A stretch of DNA of 64,000 bases, from assembly GCA_965204725.1 (NCBI GenBank), contig OZ242005.1, positions 1,312,001 to 1,376,000 on the forward strand. The letters run 5' to 3'. The notes beneath the pieces were generated by a model. It saw only the letters and a list, made by a program, of their open reading frames with translations, did not search any database and was not told the origin of the DNA. Of the stretch, positions 54,681 to 64,000 are shown piece by piece. This stretch comes from Candidatus Latescibacterota bacterium. GTDB lineage: Bacteria; Latescibacterota; UBA2968; UBA8231. A program made the position numbers and the translations under genes. Each line of letters opens with the position of its first letter. Position 1 is the first letter of the stretch.

Positions 54681-54709
54681 CAAGGCTCGAAGGCGTGTAC
54701 GATCACCTG

Positions 54710-56260
54710 TCAAGCCTCATAGCGGATGACCAACTCGATGTCGGTCAGTAGCAAGTCGCAGGCAAGTTGGGGGTGGCGTTGCAAGAGGACGACATCTAAG
54801 CGATGGAGGCCGCGGGCGGCTTGGTCGGCCGTGAGTGCAAAGCAGTGCCAAGCGGCGGCGCTGACATCGGCGATGGGTTGAGGATTGCCGTCGTGGCAAT
54901 AGCTGATATCCGGGTCGGCCAATACCGCGCCGTCCCAGCAGCAGCGAAGCTGGTCGCCGACAACCCAATCCTGTAGCCGCAGACGTAGCGTAAGGGTCGT
55001 CGGCGGGTCTGTGCTCAGGTCGTCGGCGAGGTCGAAGTCGAAGTGGGGGCCGGTCTCGTGCAAAGTCGGGTAGAGAGGAACGGGTAGGGTGCCGCGCAGG
55101 CGGTCGTGCTGGTACGCGCCGCGCCAAGGGCCGGTCTTTTGCCGGAAGCGGTGAGTCGCGCTATAGAGCTTGCTCTGGCGGCGCAGGGTCTGAACCGCGC
55201 CCACTTGGGTTAGCAACTCGCGCTTTGAGTCGCGGTCGGCGTGCCAGTTGAAGGCGTATATACCGGTCGCACCTTGGCGGTGATACTGCATGGCCGTGGC
55301 TTTGGTGCGCATGGGGTGGCGGCGCGATTCGCCTTCGGGACCGGCCGCCGGGCCGGGGACGCCGCTGTCAAAACCCGGATAGACCGCGATGTCCCCGTCG
55401 GCGCAGAGCGCGCGAAAGGCACGGACCTCAATGGCCGGATCAGTGCCGGCCGCACCGGCCGGGATCAGAATATCGACGAGATTTTCCTTGGCCCAAGTCT
55501 CCACGTCGTAGCCAATGCGGTGACAGCCCTCAATGGAGCCGGCGACGCGGGCCGCTAGGTAGAAGGGACGGCCGCGCTGTTGGGCTAGTTCGGTGGTTAG
55601 TTGCCGCGCCGCCCGCATGAAGTCGGTGAGGACGTAGCGCAGGCGATAGCCATGGTCGGCGGGGAAGTGGAAGGGGTGGCGTTGCCAGTCGAGTTCGACG
55701 CCGTCCCAAGGGTAGTTTTGGCAGACTTCGCGCAAGTGCTGGAAGCGATTTTCGCGCACTTGGGGGATGGCCATATTCCACGACAGGGCAAACCACTCCT
55801 CGGTATCCTCGCCGAGGAGCCATTCGGGGTGGTCTTGGCGCAGTTGGGTCAGTTCGGTGTGGTGCAGGGTCTGAAGGTCGCTTAGCTGCGCGCCGTTGAA
55901 GTGATTGTCGTTCATGCGCAGCGAGGCATACACGTGCAGGCCGAGTTGGTGGCCGCGGTCAATGAGTGCCTCGTGGGGATCTTCGCCGCGCTCCAACATG
56001 CGGCGAATGTTTTCGGTGTGCGTGTACGTGGCGGCGTTCTCATAGCGGCGCTGGTGCATGTCGCCGAGCAGTTCGAGCGCGTCGCTTGGCCAGCGGGTGG
56101 CGTGTTCGCCCACGCACCAAAACAAGGCGCCGACTTGGGTATCTTCGAGGGGGGCGTACACCTTGTCGAGAAAGGCGTCCATGGACTGGGGAACGGGCGA
56201 GTACCCGTGCGGTGCGCTGTCCCAGTTGTAGATGATGCCGTAGTCTGCGGGGTCGGCCAT
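54710..56260 (-). CDS. GHL10/DUF187-like TIM-barrel protein, no signal peptide
   Basis: [58 protein letters not shown]. Confidence 0.62.
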
Positions 56261-56330
56261 GTCTGCTCTGCTCCTTTGCGGGTTTGGCCCAAAGTACGGA
56301 GATTGTCAGGGGCGAGCAATGGAGGCTATT

Positions 56331-56546
56331 ATGGCGACAAAGTGGGTGCTCTGCATGGCGTTGGTCGGTTGCGGCGTGAGCGATCCCCAAGGGCCGACCG
56401 ATCTGCCCAAGGATCCATGGAAGCGCACCGAGCAACAGCGGCTGGAAGCGATTGAGGAACAATGCAGCGGCCCGCTTTGGGAGCGCGGGCTGCTTTGTCC
56501 GCGTGGCGTGGCCGATGCCGATACGACGAAGACGCAAGGTGGGTAA
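56331..56546 (+). CDS. Small hypothetical lipoprotein
   Basis: RBS ggagg; MATKWVLCMALVGC lipobox; 71 aa; ends 13 nt before the next gene. Confidence 0.55.
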   Translation: MATKWVLCMALVGCGVSDPQGPTDLPKDPWKRTEQQRLEAIEEQCSGPLWERGLLCPRGVADADTTKTQGG

Positions 56547-56559
56547 AGGAGTGTTCGGC

Positions 56560-57714
56560 ATGCAAGACAACGTACTACAGTTCGTTGATGAGCAGCGCCT
56601 GATTGATACGGCCCAAGCGCTGATTGCAGTGCCCAGCCCGACGCTGGACGCCGGCGTAGCGGCGGATGCGTTGGCGTCCATACTGGCGGTTGAGGGGTTT
56701 GCCGTAGAGCGGCCCCCAGCCGATTGGCCGCAAGCACCGGCCGTGGTCGCTCGCCTCGACAGCGGGCACCCCGGGCGGGTATTGCAGTTCGACGGGCACT
56801 TGGACACGGTGCATCTGCCTTTTGTGCCGCCCAAAGTGGAGGATGGCCAGCTCTATGGGTCGGGGGCGTCCGATATGAAGGGAGGAATCGCCGCCTTCGT
56901 CGAGGCACTGCGGGCACTGCGGGATGCGGGCGGACCGACTAAGGGGGCGATCTTGATTACGGCCCATGACCACCACGAAGCGCCTTGGGGCGACCGCCGC
57001 CAGCTTTTGGCCTTGATTCGTGCCGGCTGGGTCGGCGACGGGGTCCTACTGCCGGAGTACTTGGGCGATACCTTGCCGGTCGCCGGGCGCGGCTTGGCCG
57101 TGTTTAGCGTGGCGATCGAGCGCGACGGCTCGCCCGTCCACGAGGTGCTACGGCCCGCCGGGCTGCCGGACGTAGTAGCGGCCGGCGCGGAGGTCGTTTT
57201 GCGGCTGAATGCGCTGAACGAGCCGCTGCGCGAGCAAACCGCGCCCTATGTTGGCAGCGACACGCTGTTTATCGGCCGGATCGAAGGCGGCCAGCTCTAC
57301 AATCAGGTGCCGGTCCAATGCCGCGTCGAAGGGACTCGCCGCTGGGTGACGGCTGGAGCGGCCCCGACCGCACGCCGTGCGATCGAAGCCCTGCTCGCCG
57401 ACATAGCCGCGGCCAGCGGCACTCGCATCCGGCTCGCCGACTGGAACGTGCCCGGCGACGCCTTTGCGCTCGCTCCGAACAGCCCGTTGGTGAGCGCGTT
57501 CCAATCCGCGCACGAGCAGGTGACGGGAAAGCCGCTGCCCTTGGGCGGCAAGCCCTTTATCGACGACGGCAATGTCTTTATGGCGGCCGGGATTGAGGCC
57601 CTAACTCATGGCCCTTGCGCCGTGGGGGCGCACACGACCGACGAGCAGGTGGCGGTGGCCGAATTGGTGCGGGTGGCCAAGGTGTATGCGCTGACGGCGC
57701 AGGCGTTTTGCTAA
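56560..57714 (+). CDS. M20/M25/M40 family metallo-hydrolase
   Basis: DGHLDTV, GSGASDMKGG, HDHHE, AHTTDE. Confidence 0.85.
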   Translation: MQDNVLQFVDEQRLIDTAQALIAVPSPTLDAGVAADALASILAVEGFAVERPPADWPQAPAVVARLDSGHPGRVLQFDGHLDTVHLPFVPPKVEDGQLYGSGASDMKGGIAAFVEALRALRDAGGPTKGAILITAHDHHEAPWGDRRQLLALIRAGWVGDGVLLPEYLGDTLPVAGRGLAVFSVAIERDGSPVHEVLRPAGLPDVVAAGAEVVLRLNALNEPLREQTAPYVGSDTLFIGRIEGGQLYNQVPVQCRVEGTRRWVTAGAAPTARRAIEALLADIAAASGTRIRLADWNVPGDAFALAPNSPLVSAFQSAHEQVTGKPLPLGGKPFIDDGNVFMAAGIEALTHGPCAVGAHTTDEQVAVAELVRVAKVYALTAQAFC

Positions 57715-58991
57715 GGGGCTTCAAGGGCGCGCGCCGCGGCCGTGCCTCGCTCCTCATCGACGAATAAGAGGCAGGCCCCGCCGGCGACGAAGAGGACGAC
57801 GATCGACAAAATGCCCACCCGCGGGCTGCCGGTCAGCACCCCAATCCAGCCTATGAGCACTGGGCCGATGACGGCGGCGAACTTGCCCAACATGTTGTAA
57901 AAGCCGAAAAACTCGGCCGCTCGGTCGCGGGGAATGAGCCTTGAATAGAGCGAGCGGCTCAGGGCTTGGACCCCGCCTTGGACGAGGCCGATGGCAATGG
58001 CCAAGGCGTAAAATTCCCACACCGCATCTAAAAAGTAGCCCCACACCGTCGCGGCGATATAGACGGCTAGGCCGATGAAAATCCCCTTGCGAGTGCCCAC
58101 TCGCCCGCCGAGCCAGCCAAAGGCAATGGCCGCGGGGAAGCCCACGAACTGGGTAATGCCCAAGGCGAGGAGCAAGTCGTCGGTGGCCAGGCCCAGCGAC
58201 AGGCCGTAGTCGATGGCCATGCGGATGATGGTATCGACGCCGTCGATGTACAGCCAATAGCCGATGAGAAAGATAAAGGTCGTGCGTAGCTGCCGAATGT
58301 CGCGGCCGGTCGAGATGAGCTGCCGGTAGCCCGCCAAGACCGCGCTCCAGCCGCGGCGACCGCGCTTGGGCGGGGATTCCTCGACCCACAAAAAGAGCGG
58401 CAGCGAAAAGCCAGCCCACCAGACGGCGACCAGCAAAAAGCTCACGCGCACGGCCGCGCTGGCATCGGCCAACCCAAAGGTCGTGGGGTGGAGGACCATC
58501 ACTACGTTGACCGCAAACAGCAAGCCGCCGCCCAGATAGCCGAGGCTGTATCCGAGCGCCGAGACCGAGTCCGATTTGTCGCGGCCGGCCACCTCCACGA
58601 GGAGCGCGTCGTAAAAGGTGTTGCCGCCGGAGAAGCCGATGGCGGCCAAGACATAGACCACCACCGCCAATTCCCACGCGCCTTCGGCGACCCAGTAGAG
58701 GCACCCCGTGGCGAGGACGCCCAAGAAGGCAAAGGCAAAGAGGAACTTGCGCCGGGTGCCGCCTTGGTCGGCAATAGCCCCCAAGAGGGGCGCCAGCAGC
58801 ACGACGATCAGACTGCTGAGCGAGTTGGCCAGCCCCAGTTGGAAGGTGCTCTCGGTGACGTCGCGGCCGGCGCTCCAGTAGGACTTAAAAAACACCGGGA
58901 AGAAGGCGGCTAGGACCGTGGTGGCAAAGGCCGAATTGGCCCAGTCGTACAAGGCCCAAGCGAGGATTGGTTTTTTGGCGTGGGTAGGCAT
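57711..58991 (-). CDS. MFS transporter (UMF1/ATG22-like)
   Basis: AWALYDWANSAF, GYSLGYLGG, GGVQALSRS, EFFGFYN. Confidence 0.9.
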   Translation of the reverse strand: MPTHAKKPILAWALYDWANSAFATTVLAAFFPVFFKSYWSAGRDVTESTFQLGLANSLSSLIVVLLAPLLGAIADQGGTRRKFLFAFAFLGVLATGCLYWVAEGAWELAVVVYVLAAIGFSGGNTFYDALLVEVAGRDKSDSVSALGYSLGYLGGGLLFAVNVVMVLHPTTFGLADASAAVRVSFLLVAVWWAGFSLPLFLWVEESPPKRGRRGWSAVLAGYRQLISTGRDIRQLRTTFIFLIGYWLYIDGVDTIIRMAIDYGLSLGLATDDLLLALGITQFVGFPAAIAFGWLGGRVGTRKGIFIGLAVYIAATVWGYFLDAVWEFYALAIAIGLVQGGVQALSRSLYSRLIPRDRAAEFFGFYNMLGKFAAVIGPVLIGWIGVLTGSPRVGILSIVVLFVAGGACLLFVDEERGTAAARALEAP

Positions 58992-59118
58992 GGAGTGTTC
59001 GGGGTAAGGGATGATATTAAGATAGTATAAGGCAAAAGGGAGCGGGTTGCCGCTGGGGTGCGCTTGCGATAGTCTCTGACCTGTTCGGCGACCCAATACA
59101 ACAAAGGACGATTTAGCT

Positions 59119-60138
59119 ATGAACGACAAATGGCTGCGTTTTGACGCGGCGACCAACCCTTATGGGCCGTCGCCCAAGGTCCGGGAGGCGCTGGCGGCCT
59201 TTGCTCGCACCGGCGACTTTAGCCGCTACGACGACGAAGAGCGCGCCGAGTCCTTGCGCCGGGATTTGGCCGCGCATTGGGGGCTGTCGCCCGACCATTT
59301 CATAGTGTACAACGGCTCTGGGGAGGCCGTAGTCTGGCTTTTTTTGGCGCGGTTGCTGCTCGAGCAGCAGCGTCTGCTCGTCCCGGCCCCGTCGTACGAG
59401 CGCTTTGTGGCGTTGGGGCAGCGGTGCGCGACCGAAGTGATCCCGGTGCCGCTGGACGAGGCGGACTTTGCGTTGGTCCCCGAGCGCGTTATCGAGGCGG
59501 GTCGGCGGTCGGGTGCGCGGGTGTTGCTGTTGAGCAGCCCCAACAACCCCACGGGCAACCTCCTGTGCGGCAACCGAGAGATGGCGCAGTTGCTCGCGGC
59601 GTTGCCCGACTGTCTGTGCATCGTCGATGAAGCCTATGCAGACTATGCCGGGCACAGCTATGTGCCCTGGGTGCGCGAGCGCGCAAACTTGGTGGTGCTG
59701 CGGACCTTTTCCAAAGCATACGGCTTGGCCGGTTTGCGTATTGGCTATGCCATTGGGCCTAAGCCCGTTATCGCCGCCTTGGGTCAGATGCAGGTTCCTT
59801 GGGCCGTCAATGCGCTGTCGCTGGCTGCGGCGCGGGCCGCGCTGGCCGACCAGTGCTATTTGCATGAGGTCGTCGCCCAGATCCGCCGCGATGGTCAGGT
59901 GTTCTACGAGGGGCTGAACGAGCGGCCGTGGTTGCGAGCCTATCCGAGCGCGGCGAACTTCTTTTGGGTGCGCTGCGAGGGGCTTGGCCCGGCGCGGCTG
60001 CAGGCGGGTTTGGAAAAGCGGCGGATCCGCGCTCGCTGGCGTCAGGACGCGCCCGGCTTCGTGCGGCTCACGTCGCTGCGCCCCCCAGACAACGACTATT
60101 TGCTGGCCGCGCTCGACGAGATCGGGCGGGCAGACTAA
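59119..60138 (+). CDS. PLP-dependent aminotransferase, HisC/CobD-like
   Basis: NPYGPSP, PNNPTG, VDEAY, RTFSKAYGLAGLRIGY; not in a his operon. Confidence 0.85.
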   Translation: MNDKWLRFDAATNPYGPSPKVREALAAFARTGDFSRYDDEERAESLRRDLAAHWGLSPDHFIVYNGSGEAVVWLFLARLLLEQQRLLVPAPSYERFVALGQRCATEVIPVPLDEADFALVPERVIEAGRRSGARVLLLSSPNNPTGNLLCGNREMAQLLAALPDCLCIVDEAYADYAGHSYVPWVRERANLVVLRTFSKAYGLAGLRIGYAIGPKPVIAALGQMQVPWAVNALSLAAARAALADQCYLHEVVAQIRRDGQVFYEGLNERPWLRAYPSAANFFWVRCEGLGPARLQAGLEKRRIRARWRQDAPGFVRLTSLRPPDNDYLLAALDEIGRAD

Positions 60139-60153
60139 CACGAGAGGAGCGTT

Positions 60154-61134
60154 ATGGAATACCGCAATTTAGGCAAGGCTGGCGTCAAGGTGTCCAAGGT
60201 GTGCTTGGGCACGGCGTTTCGCGGCGAGGAGGACGAGGCTACCTGCATCGAGGTGGTGCAGCGGGCCTTGGACTTGGGCTGCAATTTCATCGATACGGCC
60301 CTGTATGGGGCGGGACGATCCGAAGAGGTGGTCGGCAAGGCCATCAAGGGACGGCGCGAGGAAGTGGTGCTGACGACCAAGATTTTTGGCACCTTGGGCC
60401 AAAGCCCCAATCACGTGGGGCTGTCGCGGGTCAATCTGCTGCGGGGCATTGAGGCGTCGTTGCAGCGGCTCCAGACCGATTACGTCGATCTGTACTTGCT
60501 GCACTCCTTTGATCCAGTAACGCCGCTGGAGGAGACCTTGGGTGCGCTCGACGACATTGTGCGGCAGGGCAAGGCGCGCTACGTGGGGTGTTCTAACTTC
60601 CCGCCGTGGAAGATCGTCGAGGCCCTGTGGATTTCTCAGCGCGAGCGTTTGGCCTCCTTTGCCTGCATCCAGAATCAGTACAACTTGCTCAACCGCTCGG
60701 AGATGGAGCCTGAGCTGATGCCTATCTGCCGTCAGTTCGGTTTGGGCATTATGACCTACAGCCCGCTGGCCATTGGCCTGCTGTCCGGCCGCTTCCGCCG
60801 CGGGCAAACGCCGCCGCCGGGTACGCCGTGGAGTGCGGAAAAGCTGTGCGGCCTGAGCCCGGGCAAATACAACTTTGCCGCGGCCATGACCGAGCGGGTC
60901 GATACCATCGTCCAGACGCTGATCGATATCGGGGCGCGACACGGCAAGACCCCAGCGCAGGTGGCCATTGCTTGGATTTTGGACCACGACGAGATCAGTG
61001 CGCCCATTTTGGGGGCCGACGAACCGGCGCACGTGGAGGAGGTTTTCGCGGGCTTGGACTGGTCTTTGGCGCCGGAAGAGCGGGCTTTGTTGGACGAGGT
61101 CTCAGCGGTAAAAAGCCCGCAGAAGTACGCCTGA
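60154..61134 (+). CDS. Aldo/keto reductase
   Basis: FIDTALYG, SLQRLQTDYVDLY, GKARYVGCSN, YSPLA. Confidence 0.93.
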   Translation: MEYRNLGKAGVKVSKVCLGTAFRGEEDEATCIEVVQRALDLGCNFIDTALYGAGRSEEVVGKAIKGRREEVVLTTKIFGTLGQSPNHVGLSRVNLLRGIEASLQRLQTDYVDLYLLHSFDPVTPLEETLGALDDIVRQGKARYVGCSNFPPWKIVEALWISQRERLASFACIQNQYNLLNRSEMEPELMPICRQFGLGIMTYSPLAIGLLSGRFRRGQTPPPGTPWSAEKLCGLSPGKYNFAAAMTERVDTIVQTLIDIGARHGKTPAQVAIAWILDHDEISAPILGADEPAHVEEVFAGLDWSLAPEERALLDEVSAVKSPQKYA

Positions 61135-61149
61135 CCTGAAGGAGGGGCC

Positions 61150-62697
61150 ATGCCCAAACGCAGATTGCCAATCGGCATTCAGACCTTCCGCAAAATTTGG
61201 CAAGAGAACTGCTACTACGTCGATAAGACCGCGTACATCCGGCGGCTGCTCGACGAGGGGACTCACTACTTTCTATCGCGCCCCCGCCGCTTTGGCAAGA
61301 GCCTGTTCCTCGACACGCTCAAGGAGTTGTTCGAGGGCAACGAGCCGCTGTTTGCGGGGCTGTACATCCGCGATCGCTGGGATTGGTCGGCGCGCCATCC
61401 GGTCGTGCGTCTCAGCTTTGGCAGCGGCAATTTCAAGGAGCCCGGCTACGTGGAGACGAACCTGATGGCGCAACTGGACGCGGTCGCGCGCCGGGCTGGT
61501 ATCGCGTCGGATTACGCCACCGGGCCGGAGCGATTTGCCCACCTGCTGGAGACGCTGCACACCCGAACCGGGCAGGCAGTAGTCGTGCTGATCGACGAAT
61601 ACGACAAGCCGATTTTGGACGCGCTGGAGGTGCCGGAGATAGCCCGCGCCAATCGCGACTTTCTGCGCGGCCTGTACGCGGTCATCAAGGACTGCGACGC
61701 GCACGTCCGTTTCGCGTTCATCACCGGAGTGAGCAAGTTTTCCAAGGTCAGCCTGTTTTCCGGCCTCAACAACCTCACCGACATTACCCTTGAACCCGAG
61801 TACTCGGCCCTCTGCGGCTACACCGACGCCGATCTGGACGCGGTGTTCGCACCGGAACTTCCCGGCCTAGACCGGGATCAGATCCGCGACTGGTACAACG
61901 GCTACGCTTGGCTCGGTGCCGAGCGGGTGTACAACCCCTTCGACATCCTGCTGCTCTTTCGTCGCCGCCGCTTCGACGCCTACTGGTTTGAGACCGGTAC
62001 TCCCACGTTCTTGATCGAAACGCTGTTCAAACGCCGCGTCAGTTCCCTCGCGCTGAATCGGATGGAGGGCAGCAGCGAGTTGCTATCGACTTTTGACGTG
62101 GACGACATGGCGACCGAGGCCCTGCTGTTTCAGACGGGCTACCTCACGATAACGGCCGAAGAAAACCTCGGCGGCGAGCGGCTCTACCAGTTGGGCTATC
62201 CCAACCGGGAGGTGCGCCAGAGCCTAAACCGCAGCCTGCTGCGCTACTTGGTGAAGGACCCATCGCGGCAGATGGCCAACAGCGTCCGGCTCTACCGACT
62301 GCTGGAGGCCAACGACTTCGCCGGGCTGGAGACGCTCTTCCACGCCTTCTTCGCCAGCATTCCCTACGAGTGGTATAACAACAACGACATCGCCCAGTAC
62401 GAGGGCTATTACGCCAGCGTGTTCTACTCCTATTTCGCCGGGCTGGGGCTGGACATTGCCGTGGAGGACAGCAGCAGCCATGGCCGGCTGGATATGGCGG
62501 TTTTGTTTAACGGCTGCGTCTATTTGTTCGAGTTCAAGGTCGTTGAGTTGGCGTCTGCGGGCGCGGCCATGGCGCAGTTGCAGCAGCGGCGGTACGCAGA
62601 CAAGTATCGCGCCTTGGGCCAGCCGATGTACCTGATCGCTGTCGAGTTCAGCAAGGACGCCCGCAACCTCGCGGCGTTTGACGTGGAGCGCGCCTGA
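61150..62697 (+). CDS. AAA-ATPase-like protein with C-terminal PD-(D/E)XK nuclease domain
   Basis: LPIGIQTF, YVDKT, RPRRFGKSL, LIDEYDKP, TGVSKFS, GRLDM...FEFK. Confidence 0.92.
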   Translation: MPKRRLPIGIQTFRKIWQENCYYVDKTAYIRRLLDEGTHYFLSRPRRFGKSLFLDTLKELFEGNEPLFAGLYIRDRWDWSARHPVVRLSFGSGNFKEPGYVETNLMAQLDAVARRAGIASDYATGPERFAHLLETLHTRTGQAVVVLIDEYDKPILDALEVPEIARANRDFLRGLYAVIKDCDAHVRFAFITGVSKFSKVSLFSGLNNLTDITLEPEYSALCGYTDADLDAVFAPELPGLDRDQIRDWYNGYAWLGAERVYNPFDILLLFRRRRFDAYWFETGTPTFLIETLFKRRVSSLALNRMEGSSELLSTFDVDDMATEALLFQTGYLTITAEENLGGERLYQLGYPNREVRQSLNRSLLRYLVKDPSRQMANSVRLYRLLEANDFAGLETLFHAFFASIPYEWYNNNDIAQYEGYYASVFYSYFAGLGLDIAVEDSSSHGRLDMAVLFNGCVYLFEFKVVELASAGAAMAQLQQRRYADKYRALGQPMYLIAVEFSKDARNLAAFDVERA

Positions 62698-62698
62698 T

Positions 62699-62800
62699 AT
62701 GCTGGACGAACTCCGCAAAATTCGCTATGCCCGCTTCCGCTTGGAGATGACGGCGGTTGATAGGTTGCGGTTGCCTCCCTTTAGGGCTGGGACGCTACGA
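62699..62800 (+). pseudogene. cas6: 5' stub of a Cas6 (RAMP) endoribonuclease gene
   Basis: MLDELRKIRYARFRLEMTAVDRLRLPPFRAGTLR resembles the Cas6 N-terminus (..LPxY/FxGSTLRG); similarity stops and AT content rises at ~62800. Confidence 0.6.
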
Positions 62801-63306
62801 GATTTTGCGATACAGTCCGTTAAAACTGTGTCGGCGAAATCGAAATCGTGCTCTACTCGACCGCTGTGAGACCAAACGCCAGACTCTGCTGGCTACGCTC
62901 GTCCTTTTTGAAGCAGAGTCGGTACGCAATGGGAATTTGCTCTCTGCTGTTAGAATCGGCTTCCGAAAGCTGAGCGAGCAGTTGTTGGGTTTGCCGCATT
63001 TTACTTTTGTGCCCCAAGTCTTTCTGTGTGACGCAAGGATAGCACACAAAATCGTAAAGGCGGAGTGCGATGCAATACGGGTAGAACAGTTGCAGAAGAT
63101 GCCCTTAGAGCTGGATTGCACGTTGCCGAGGCCGATGCGGCTTCCGATATTGGGGCGGCCCTAGTAGACATCGACAAAATTTCAGAATCGCCTCTACTTG
63201 AGCGAACACCCATTCTATGACCTATGGATAAATTTTGTGAACGCTGTTTGGTACGAGCCTGAAGCGGCACTGGAGCGCGGCTCATTCGTCTAGAGTGAAC
63301 GCTTTG

Positions 63307-63343
63307 ATTTGAAGTGTTGACCCGCTTTGTAGGGGACTGAAAC
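63307..63343 (+). CRISPR. Single orphan CRISPR-like direct repeat (37 bp)
   Basis: ATTTGAAGTGTTGACCCGCTTTGTAGGGGACTGAAAC: CCC/GGG stem, 3' ACTGAAAC handle, preceded by ~500 bp AT-richer leader-like DNA; no second repeat found. Confidence 0.6.
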
Positions 63344-63402
63344 CTCGGTTGTTTCCATCGGCTGATGAGAAACGCACTACTTCACAAGTAAAGGAGAATA
63401 TT

Positions 63403-63723
63403 ATGTTGATTTTGACGACGCCCTCAATTGAAGGGGCAACGATCACCGACTATCACGGCATTGTGAGTGGGGAAGCCATTTTGGGTGCCAACATCTTCAA
63501 AGATCTCTTTGCGAGTGTGCGCGACATCGTGGGGGGACGGTCGGCTGCTTATGAGGAAGAACTCCGCAAAGCCAAAGACCTCGCCATTGAAGAGATGACC
63601 ACACAGGCGCGTCACATGGGCGCAAATGCCGTCGTTGGCGTGGACCTCGACTACGAAACCATTGGCGGGGGCAATATGCTCATGGTCAGTGCCAGCGGCA
63701 CGGCTGTCACTTATGCGGCTTGA
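63403..63723 (+). CDS. ybjQ: YbjQ family (UPF0145) protein
   Basis: [16 protein letters not shown]...[10 protein letters not shown]...[13 protein letters not shown]...VSASGTAV. Confidence 0.93.
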
Positions 63724-63766
63724 GCTTTACCGGATATTCGCGTCCGGTCTGTGAAAAGGAACGCCC

Positions 63767-64000
63767 ATGCGCCTCTGCGACTTTCCAATCCTGACCTTTG
63801 ACACCTACGGAACCCTAATCGACTGGGAGACGGGTATCTGGGACGCACTGCAACCGCTCTGCGTGCGTCTGGCTGCTCCGCCGACTCGCGAGGCGGCCCT
63901 CGCCGCATTCGCCGAGGCGGAATCGGCCTGTCAAGCGGCCACCCCCGACCTGCTCTACGCCGACCTCTTGGCGGCCACCCACCACACGCTGGCCCGGAAC
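63767..64000 (+). CDS. HAD-family hydrolase (haloacid dehalogenase type II-like), truncated by window end
   Basis: MRLCDFPILTFDTYGTLIDWETGIWDAL; not in the ORF track. Confidence 0.85.
   Translation, partial: MRLCDFPILTFDTYGTLIDWETGIWDALQPLCVRLAAPPTREAALAAFAEAESACQAATPDLLYADLLAATHHTLARN

Follow-up and report, generated by a model that had tools for sequence, protein, structure and literature searches.

Probable relic of a defence island (type III CRISPR-Cas and restriction-modification) with a single residual repeat in a Candidatus Latescibacterota genome

In a Candidatus Latescibacterota genome, the DNA directly downstream of an AAA-ATPase/nuclease gene is, with a probability of roughly 90%, the non-functional remains of a defence island in which type III CRISPR-Cas and restriction-modification genes were combined; relatives have kept this island. 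The window analyzed is a 64,000-nucleotide stretch of this genome (G000:C1:1312001-1376000), which comprises 5.43 Mb in 2 contigs at 60% GC. The original prediction, drawn from the letters of the window, had held that a cas operon and its array were deleted here. Our comparisons confirmed this, since the locus is collinear with intact loci in two relatives, G019 and G027, and its repeat is arrayed in relatives. The features of the locus, with their strand in brackets, are as follows.

61150 to 62697 (+): intact gene of 515 aa for an AAA-ATPase_like and PDDEXK_9 protein, left flank (Pfam PF09820, 1.2e-63; PF08011, 5.8e-19)
62699 to 62779 (+): 5′ stub of cas6, codons 1 to 27 (85% identity over 34 aa)
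62780 to 62821 (+): last ~10 codons of cas6, overlapping methylase aa 22 to 35; the cas6 end lies at 62784 to 62810, in a frame different from that of the stub
62844 to 63071 (+): methylase fragment, aa 175 to 250 of the 440-aa N6/N4 DNA methylase of G027 (tblastn 87% identity, E 4e-42)
63074 to 63220 (+): C-terminal methylase fragment, aa 393 to 440 plus stop (tblastn 90% identity, E 1.4e-23; the frame ends at 63220)
63234 to 63293 (+): C-terminal restriction-enzyme fragment, aa 281 to 299 of the 299-aa Bpu10I-family protein of G027, plus stop (tblastn 89% identity)
63294 to 63306 (+): short spacer between the endonuclease gene and cas10, with the left deletion junction (G019 alignment)
63307 to 63343 (+): full-length 37-nt CRISPR repeat (34/37 identical to the 66-copy repeat of G019)
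63344 to 63375 (+): probable truncated spacer of 32 nt, covering a hairpin (the same 32 nt occur elsewhere in X1, X3 and X7 contigs)
63376 to 63766 (+): lineage-specific segment with ybjQ at 63403 to 63723 (PF01906 at 2.1e-39)
63767 to 64000 (+): conserved right-flank gene (81-91% DNA identity in 21/30 relatives)

Results

The locus shares its genomic position with type III loci of relatives

The left flank from 54709 to 62697 is syntenic with several same-genus genomes, in which the AAA-ATPase/PDDEXK_9 gene likewise stands immediately 5′ of cas6. This gene adjoins cas6 in 9 of the 11 20-kb loci of relatives that we compared; in L026 it is not beside cas6, and L027 has only a partial copy. On the right, the G019 counterpart of the gene at 63767 starts 32 nt past the last repeat, which leaves a 32-nt trailer. 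Between these flanks, G019 encodes cas6, a restriction-modification pair, cas10, csm2, csm3, csm4, csm5, and a TM1812-family protein, followed by a second type III module that consists of a 532-aa Cas10, several RAMPs, Csx10, two Csx7, and a TIGR03986-family RAMP. A Cas_APE2256 protein, cas1, cas2, the leader, 66 repeats, the 32-nt trailer, and the conserved gene complete the order. The restriction-modification pair was seen in both G027 and G019, and the part from csm5 to the array in G019 only. Relative to this arrangement, the window has a single deletion from the start codon of cas10 to the first base of the repeat, ~24.5 kb as measured in G019.

The G019 locus (G019:C1:5144000-5184999; L022/L045/L033) combines type III-A and III-D-like modules, CARF-type accessory genes, cas1-cas2, and a nested type II restriction-modification pair. 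A 283-aa ORF, accompanied by a 45-nt duplication of the end of the AAA-ATPase gene, lies between that gene and cas6.

Eleven full-length copies of the AAA-ATPase/PDDEXK_9 gene, including the one at 61150-62697, occur in the window's own genome with 71-100% amino acid identity, and some of these copies (C1, 11 loci) form tandem runs. The cas6-adjacent copy moves together with the CRISPR-Cas module (L025, L031, L032). In G001, G022, and G023, the module is at another genomic site, where only the AAA-ATPase/PDDEXK_9 gene and cas6 match the window. In the public sequencing run X1, the depth across the final ~85 nt of the AAA-ATPase gene (62611-62697) was 10-23x that of its flanks; many short contigs branch off at 62693, and the 3′ end of this gene family is highly repeated in the samples.

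An internally deleted cas6 follows the AAA-ATPase gene

As predicted, a cas6-like start lies 1 nt past the AAA-ATPase/nuclease gene, whose TGA occupies 62695-62697, with an ATG at 62699. The same 1-nt distance from stop to cas6 start is found in G027. The frame that begins at 62699 extends over 56 codons, to 62869. Neither Pfam nor NCBIfam had a match for these 56 aa or for three further frames in 62757-63285; the homology of the stub was seen only in a protein search limited to longer proteins and in the DNA of relatives. In the protein search, which covered 5.8 billion proteins, residues 1-34 were 85% identical to the N-terminus of ~310-aa proteins, with E-values down to 4.6e-9. The 64 candidates yielded 29 hits, all of which carry PF27225 and 26 of which carry PF10040 (CRISPR_Cas6). 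The proposed Cas6 similarity thus passed its check, as the stub has N-terminal homology to the PF10040 family. From our reading of the alignment, residues 1-26 are identical to those of the homologue P0002, and tblastn with full-length homologues placed residues 1-34 at 62699-62800.

While the predicted 34-codon Cas6-like N-terminus stood, its predicted end at ~62800 had to be moved. DNA alignment to the intact G019 gene puts the junction at ~62780, in codon 27, and homology to the 5′ end of cas6 in both G019 and G027 stops at 62780. Beyond this point, residues 301-309 of P0002 were found by tblastn at 62784-62810 with 100% identity and in a frame other than that of the stub, and blastn located the 3′ end of cas6 at 62780-62821 (94% to G019, 97% to G027). 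Codons 1-27 are fused out of frame to the last ~10 codons by an internal deletion of ~830 bp. With ~270 codons missing, the locus does not encode a complete Cas6 with its C-terminal Cas6 domain, and neither tblastn nor profile searches with PF10040 and PF01881 found a second cas6 copy in the genome.

Restriction-modification debris occupies the position of the supposed leader

The ~500 bp between the cas6 remnant and the repeat had been described as AT-richer DNA and read as a CRISPR leader. The base composition was as described, with 51% GC in 62813-63306 against 60% in the genome. The leader reading failed on what the DNA encodes. Upon alignment to G019 and G027, 62780-63306 resolved into collinear pieces of 89-97% identity whose counterparts are scattered across 2.2-3.9 kb of the cas6-cas10 interval. 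In G027, this interval carries the 440-aa N6/N4 DNA methylase (PF01555, 1.1e-9) and the 299-aa endonuclease (PF09549 RE_Bpu10I, 8.7e-81); in G019, the methylase is interrupted by an IS4 transposase. Of a type II restriction-modification pair, the window retains only methylase residues 22-35 (71% identity at 62780-62821), 175-250, and 393-440 and endonuclease residues 281-299. The methylase gene has suffered two deletions of ~430 bp each and the endonuclease gene an internal deletion of ~830 bp. The 260-nt leader of G019, from cas2 to the first repeat, had no match anywhere in the genome (the best was 16 nt, E 0.27), and the DNA upstream of the repeat has no homology to the leader of related arrays. 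As judged by these alignments, the AT-richer stretch is what is left of a restriction-modification pair that lay inside the CRISPR-Cas locus.

The 37-mer is a repeat of a family arrayed in relatives

The position and CRISPR identity predicted for the 37-mer were correct. It matches, at 34 of 37 positions, the repeat of the G019 array, whose 66 copies are all identical and which is also present in G027. Using a 25-nt core pattern with at most 2 mismatches, we found this repeat family arrayed in 9 of 30 same-genus genomes at 14-355 copies; the core was present at 1-2 copies in five same-genus genomes (the window's genome counted) and had no match in the other 17. The 37-mer accordingly belongs to the type III repeat family that members of the genus carry in arrays. 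Against Rfam, it gave a full-length match to CRISPR-DR10 that was below threshold (20.7 bits against a gathering score of 39, E 0.33). The CRISPR-type stem that had been predicted was not supported, as the repeat folds into a 3-bp stem at -5.0 kcal/mol with a z of 0.00, and 90 of 200 shuffled sequences fold as well or better.

Homology to G019 on the left ends at 63306, the first base of the GTG start codon of its Cas10/Csm1 gene (TIGR02578, 1.9e-168), and the repeat begins at 63307. Within the repeat, position 63337 in the 8-nt tag is C, where the arrays of relatives and the allele in run X7 have T; this lineage-specific change is as expected for drift. The search of the repeat against the rest of the genome found it to be single: the 28-nt core (63316-63343) is unique at up to 3 mismatches, so that the genome has no array of two or more such repeats with spacers. 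An array scan of the genome for at least 3 repeats returned only coding repeats of the leucine-rich-repeat, ankyrin, and similar kinds. Taken together with the match to a same-genus array, the 37-mer is a genuine repeat of the deleted CRISPR-Cas system.

Tandem coding repeats on C1 of the window's genome lie at 63961-64628, 1633869-1634268, 2291048-2291542, 2503635-2504047, and 4495605-4496025; as read from the DNA, they resemble leucine-rich-repeat and ankyrin-repeat genes.

No matches to Cas partners of the repeat were found

New spacer acquisition requires Cas1-Cas2, and repeat processing requires Cas6. In the genome, which is 94% complete, we found no match to the six Cas families searched (Cas1, Cas2, Cas10 palm2, RAMP, PF10040, and PF01881). 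Each of the models matched in 2-7 of 14 control genomes. Completeness was estimated from marker genes, and a cas gene could still lie in unassembled DNA. By these searches, the genome has neither the cas10/csm1 and csm2-5 set of type III-A, which relatives carry at the same site, nor the cas1 and cas2 adaptation module, both genes of which stand beside the leader in G019. No promoter-like site was found on the plus strand of 62600-63800.

These results bear on whether the solitary repeat has been retained for a function, either as an RNA that binds Cas proteins in trans or as a leader-repeat unit that seeds a new array, both of which had been put forward. The repeat is full length with 34 of 37 bases conserved, and solitary repeats that act as RNA anti-CRISPRs or regulators have been described in other settings (PMC10651486; 10.1101/2023.03.03.530964; PMC8616872). 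Set against this are the absence of matches to Cas1, Cas2, Cas6, Cas10, and RAMP proteins in the genome, the absence of a leader upstream, the lineage-specific change in the 8-nt tag, and the lack of a promoter-like plus-strand site in 62600-63800. The repeat is, moreover, chromosomal and flanked by conserved host genes, not by phage or plasmid DNA. We consider a retained function very unlikely. Since leader, integrase, processing enzyme, and effector are all without a match and the tag has drifted, priming of new acquisition has no support, and the proposed action in trans, to judge from the changed tag and the missing Cas6 and effector matches, would have none either. With no Cas1-Cas2, Cas6, or effector in the genome, the repeat and the piece of spacer beside it would be neither extended nor processed nor used, and would be left to drift.

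Contigs of three studies span the single repeat and preserve a less decayed allele

To check the assembly, we compared the locus with contigs from public runs of three studies. A 2679-nt contig of run X1 covers 62643-63600 with 0 differences at a depth of 139, and run X3, of a different study, has a 2726-nt contig (depth 18) with 8 differences across this span. In the third study, a 1622-nt contig of run X7 (depth 8.6) has the same cas10-to-repeat junction and continues into ybjQ. All three contradict the collapse of a full array into one repeat by the assembler, as they run from unique left-hand DNA through one repeat into ybjQ, and the X1 depth rises just from 139 to 153 in the bin that contains the repeat. 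Arrays are often collapsed in assemblies, and X3 and X7 also hold repeat-spacer-repeat contigs of this repeat family; those contigs, however, have T at 63337 and low depths (3.3 and 6.5), as expected for other strains. We therefore regard collapse as highly improbable. That the 37-mer and the stub resemble CRISPR sequences by chance in ordinary intergenic DNA has a negligible likelihood: the 56-aa frame is without a Pfam or NCBIfam match, the Rfam hit is sub-threshold and the repeat fold insignificant, but this reading is refuted by the stub homology (26 initial residues identical to P0002; E-values down to 4.6e-9), by collinearity with intact loci at the same genomic position, and by the 34/37 match to a repeat of which a same-genus array has 66 copies.

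The X7 contig represents a less decayed allele. In it, 425 letters replace 62778-62845 and 424 extra letters stand between 63071 and 63072, of which we compared lengths only. The 424 letters correspond to 424 nt at the same point in G019, and both X7 insert sites coincide with the methylase deletion points. At the endonuclease deletion point, X7 has no extra DNA.

The right edge holds a probable spacer remnant and an acquired segment

The hairpin predicted at 63351-63373 is present, though weak (z -1.30 for 63344-63402, with 19 of 200 shuffles as stable or more), and it falls inside what is probably a piece of spacer. The 32 nt of 63344-63375 recur in other contigs of runs X1, X3, and X7, that is, in three studies, with 1 difference in X1. 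This recurrence was read from Logan contigs with 30-nt flanks only. The match starts exactly at the base that follows the repeat; past 63375, the DNA of the other contigs is unrelated to the window in X1, X3, and X7, and before 63344 it is unrelated in X7. One of the X1 contigs with the 32 nt has a depth of 75, compared with 139 for the host contig. The 65 spacers of G019 measure 37-45 nt, which makes the piece in the window at least 5 nt shorter. On these grounds, 63344-63375 is probably a spacer that was cut short and whose target lies in another element of the same habitat. The 32-mer does not recur elsewhere in its own genome, and at up to 3 mismatches it is absent in full from 60 family genomes. 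A 26-nt part of it had no exact match in viral, genome, or metagenome contig collections; phage records gave no match, and the four matches in plasmid records (E 0.2-0.7) are at the level of chance.

At the DNA level, the segment that follows, 63376-63766, was without a match in 30 same-genus genomes; for its ybjQ, protein matches reached at most 32% identity and occurred in 4 of the 30. The ybjQ gene is acquired, and the segment took the place of the remaining array and of the conserved 32-nt trailer. We also considered a mobile cassette with terminal inverted repeats at 63344-63766 and rejected it, since a 10-nt palindrome within ybjQ was the only repeat, inverted or direct, that we found. 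In other degraded loci of the genus (G002, G012, G001, and G005), a different lineage-specific small gene lies 0-80 nt after the solitary repeat.

A sequence of events can be proposed from the two alleles. Since X7 shares the cas10-to-repeat deletion, has DNA at the methylase sites, and has none at the endonuclease point, the cas genes and the endonuclease would have been lost first and the orphan methylase later. The cas10-to-repeat deletion (~24.5 kb in G019) removed the cas genes. The orphaned methylase would then have decayed in the window's lineage, as would the repeat. A foreign segment with ybjQ replaced everything past 32 nt of the spacer that followed the repeat.

Several junctions in the genus fall at or next to the first base of a repeat

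We compared the junction in the window with those of other degraded loci, some at the AAA-ATPase gene of same-genus genomes without arrays and some in G027. At six independent junctions in the genus, the surviving left-hand DNA reaches the repeat within 1 nt of its first base. The last point of the surviving DNA before the repeat is given for each.

This window: start codon of cas10
G004: cas6 at ~codon 66 (full repeat, 36/37 identical to the array repeat of G026)
G012: cas6 at ~codon 17
G002: cas6 at ~codon 8-9 (1 extra nt; the second site of G005 is similar and may be the same event)
G027, first: cas6 at ~codon 51 (repeat degenerate)
G027, second: a second cas10 at ~codon 117

With random end points and a 77-nt repeat-spacer period, the chance of landing within 1 nt is ~4% per event. 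One further degraded locus of the genus does not conform: in G001, 235 nt of DNA separate the stub from the repeat. In another genus (g8), the outcome was mixed; the G046 junction, with 6 extra nt and a repeat that lacks its 3′ end, does not conform. Stretches of microhomology at the six junctions amount to 0, 2, 1, ~2-4, 0, and 0 nt, which is too short to separate end joining from other mechanisms. No spacer in the arrays of relatives matched 62812-63306; the only matches to this stretch were the cas6-cas10 regions of G019 and G027.

In genus g8, which belongs to the same class, G046 (L064, C14) has a gene of ~85 codons between two repeat copies, and in both G046 and G102 (L063, C29) the stop codon of the small gene directly abuts the first base of the repeat. 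At L029 (C13, 8147-12130) of G027, an old cas6 stub and a second cas6 copy, which is split, have four dispersed repeat copies between them. The separating segments are 409, 1409, 1182, and 481 nt long and contain ORFs without a Pfam match, along with an N-terminal piece, 119 codons long, of a divergent cas10. A duplicate of the final 65 nt of the AAA-ATPase gene precedes the second cas6.

The first base of a repeat is the point where a spacer ends and, in the first repeat of an array, the site that the Cas1-Cas2 integrase opens. We consider it possible, at somewhat less than even odds, that the system deleted itself in an event linked to spacer uptake and that the degraded locus is the resulting scar. 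By one route, the leader-repeat junction would break during integration, DNA on the side of the cas operon would be lost, and the ends would be rejoined. By another, a spacer derived from the cas operon would recombine with its source. Either route would remove, in one step, the cas operon upstream of its own leader, and the leaderless array would then collapse. DNA with a match to the 32-nt piece is still present in the samples, as would fit a leader-proximal spacer of recent acquisition. Cas-matching spacers have been recorded in orphan arrays of cas-less E. coli strains (PMC2886076; PMC8616872 section 20). A literature search, at the level of listings plus passages, returned no description of deletion scars at repeat boundaries.

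Discussion

Degraded CRISPR-Cas loci with a residual repeat are a known kind, of which this is a new instance; it is of type III and decayed together with a restriction-modification pair. The nearest comparison is with the degraded CRISPR/cas loci and orphan mini-arrays of E. coli and Salmonella (Touchon & Rocha 2010, PMC2886076), in which cas genes were likewise lost while one or a few repeats were kept at the old site. The E. coli I-F orphan arrays with anti-cas spacers serve as a further comparison (Almendros et al. 2016, as summarized in PMC8616872 section 20). These relics share with the window cas-derived sequence directly beside a remaining repeat and a loss that recurs across the lineages of a group. 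There are three differences. The enterobacterial systems are type I, whereas that of the window is type III; the cas sequence in the window is an in-place 5′ part joined to the native upstream gene, not a spacer between repeats; and decay of the cas genes in the window was accompanied by that of a nested restriction-modification pair. The window has its cas6 stub, repeat family, and genomic position in common with the type III-A (Csm) systems with Cas6 of G019 and G027, whereas none of the proteins that define these systems is left in its genome.

Solitary repeat units and RNA anti-CRISPRs of viruses (PMC10651486; PMC8616872 section 16) and repeat-like regulatory RNAs in cas loci (10.1101/2023.03.03.530964) likewise consist of a single repeat outside an array. 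Such RNAs and regulators reside in mobile elements or intact cas loci and act on Cas proteins of the same cell. The repeat in the window, in contrast, stands amid gene debris in a genome without a Cas match, at a site that is chromosomal and syntenic, and we do not class it with them.

The loss of both a type III CRISPR-Cas system and its nested restriction-modification pair sets this strain apart from close relatives in the same habitat, which retain theirs. Together with the X7 allele, the locus provides a dated series of steps in the decay of a defence island, in which the cas genes and the endonuclease would have gone before the orphan methylase. The exact repeat-boundary junctions in several species point to a specific route of CRISPR-Cas loss, a question that is usually treated only statistically. 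Bench experiments and a survey of degraded loci across databases could put such a route to the test. Several of the public runs that contain this stretch of DNA are labelled as sponge metagenomes.
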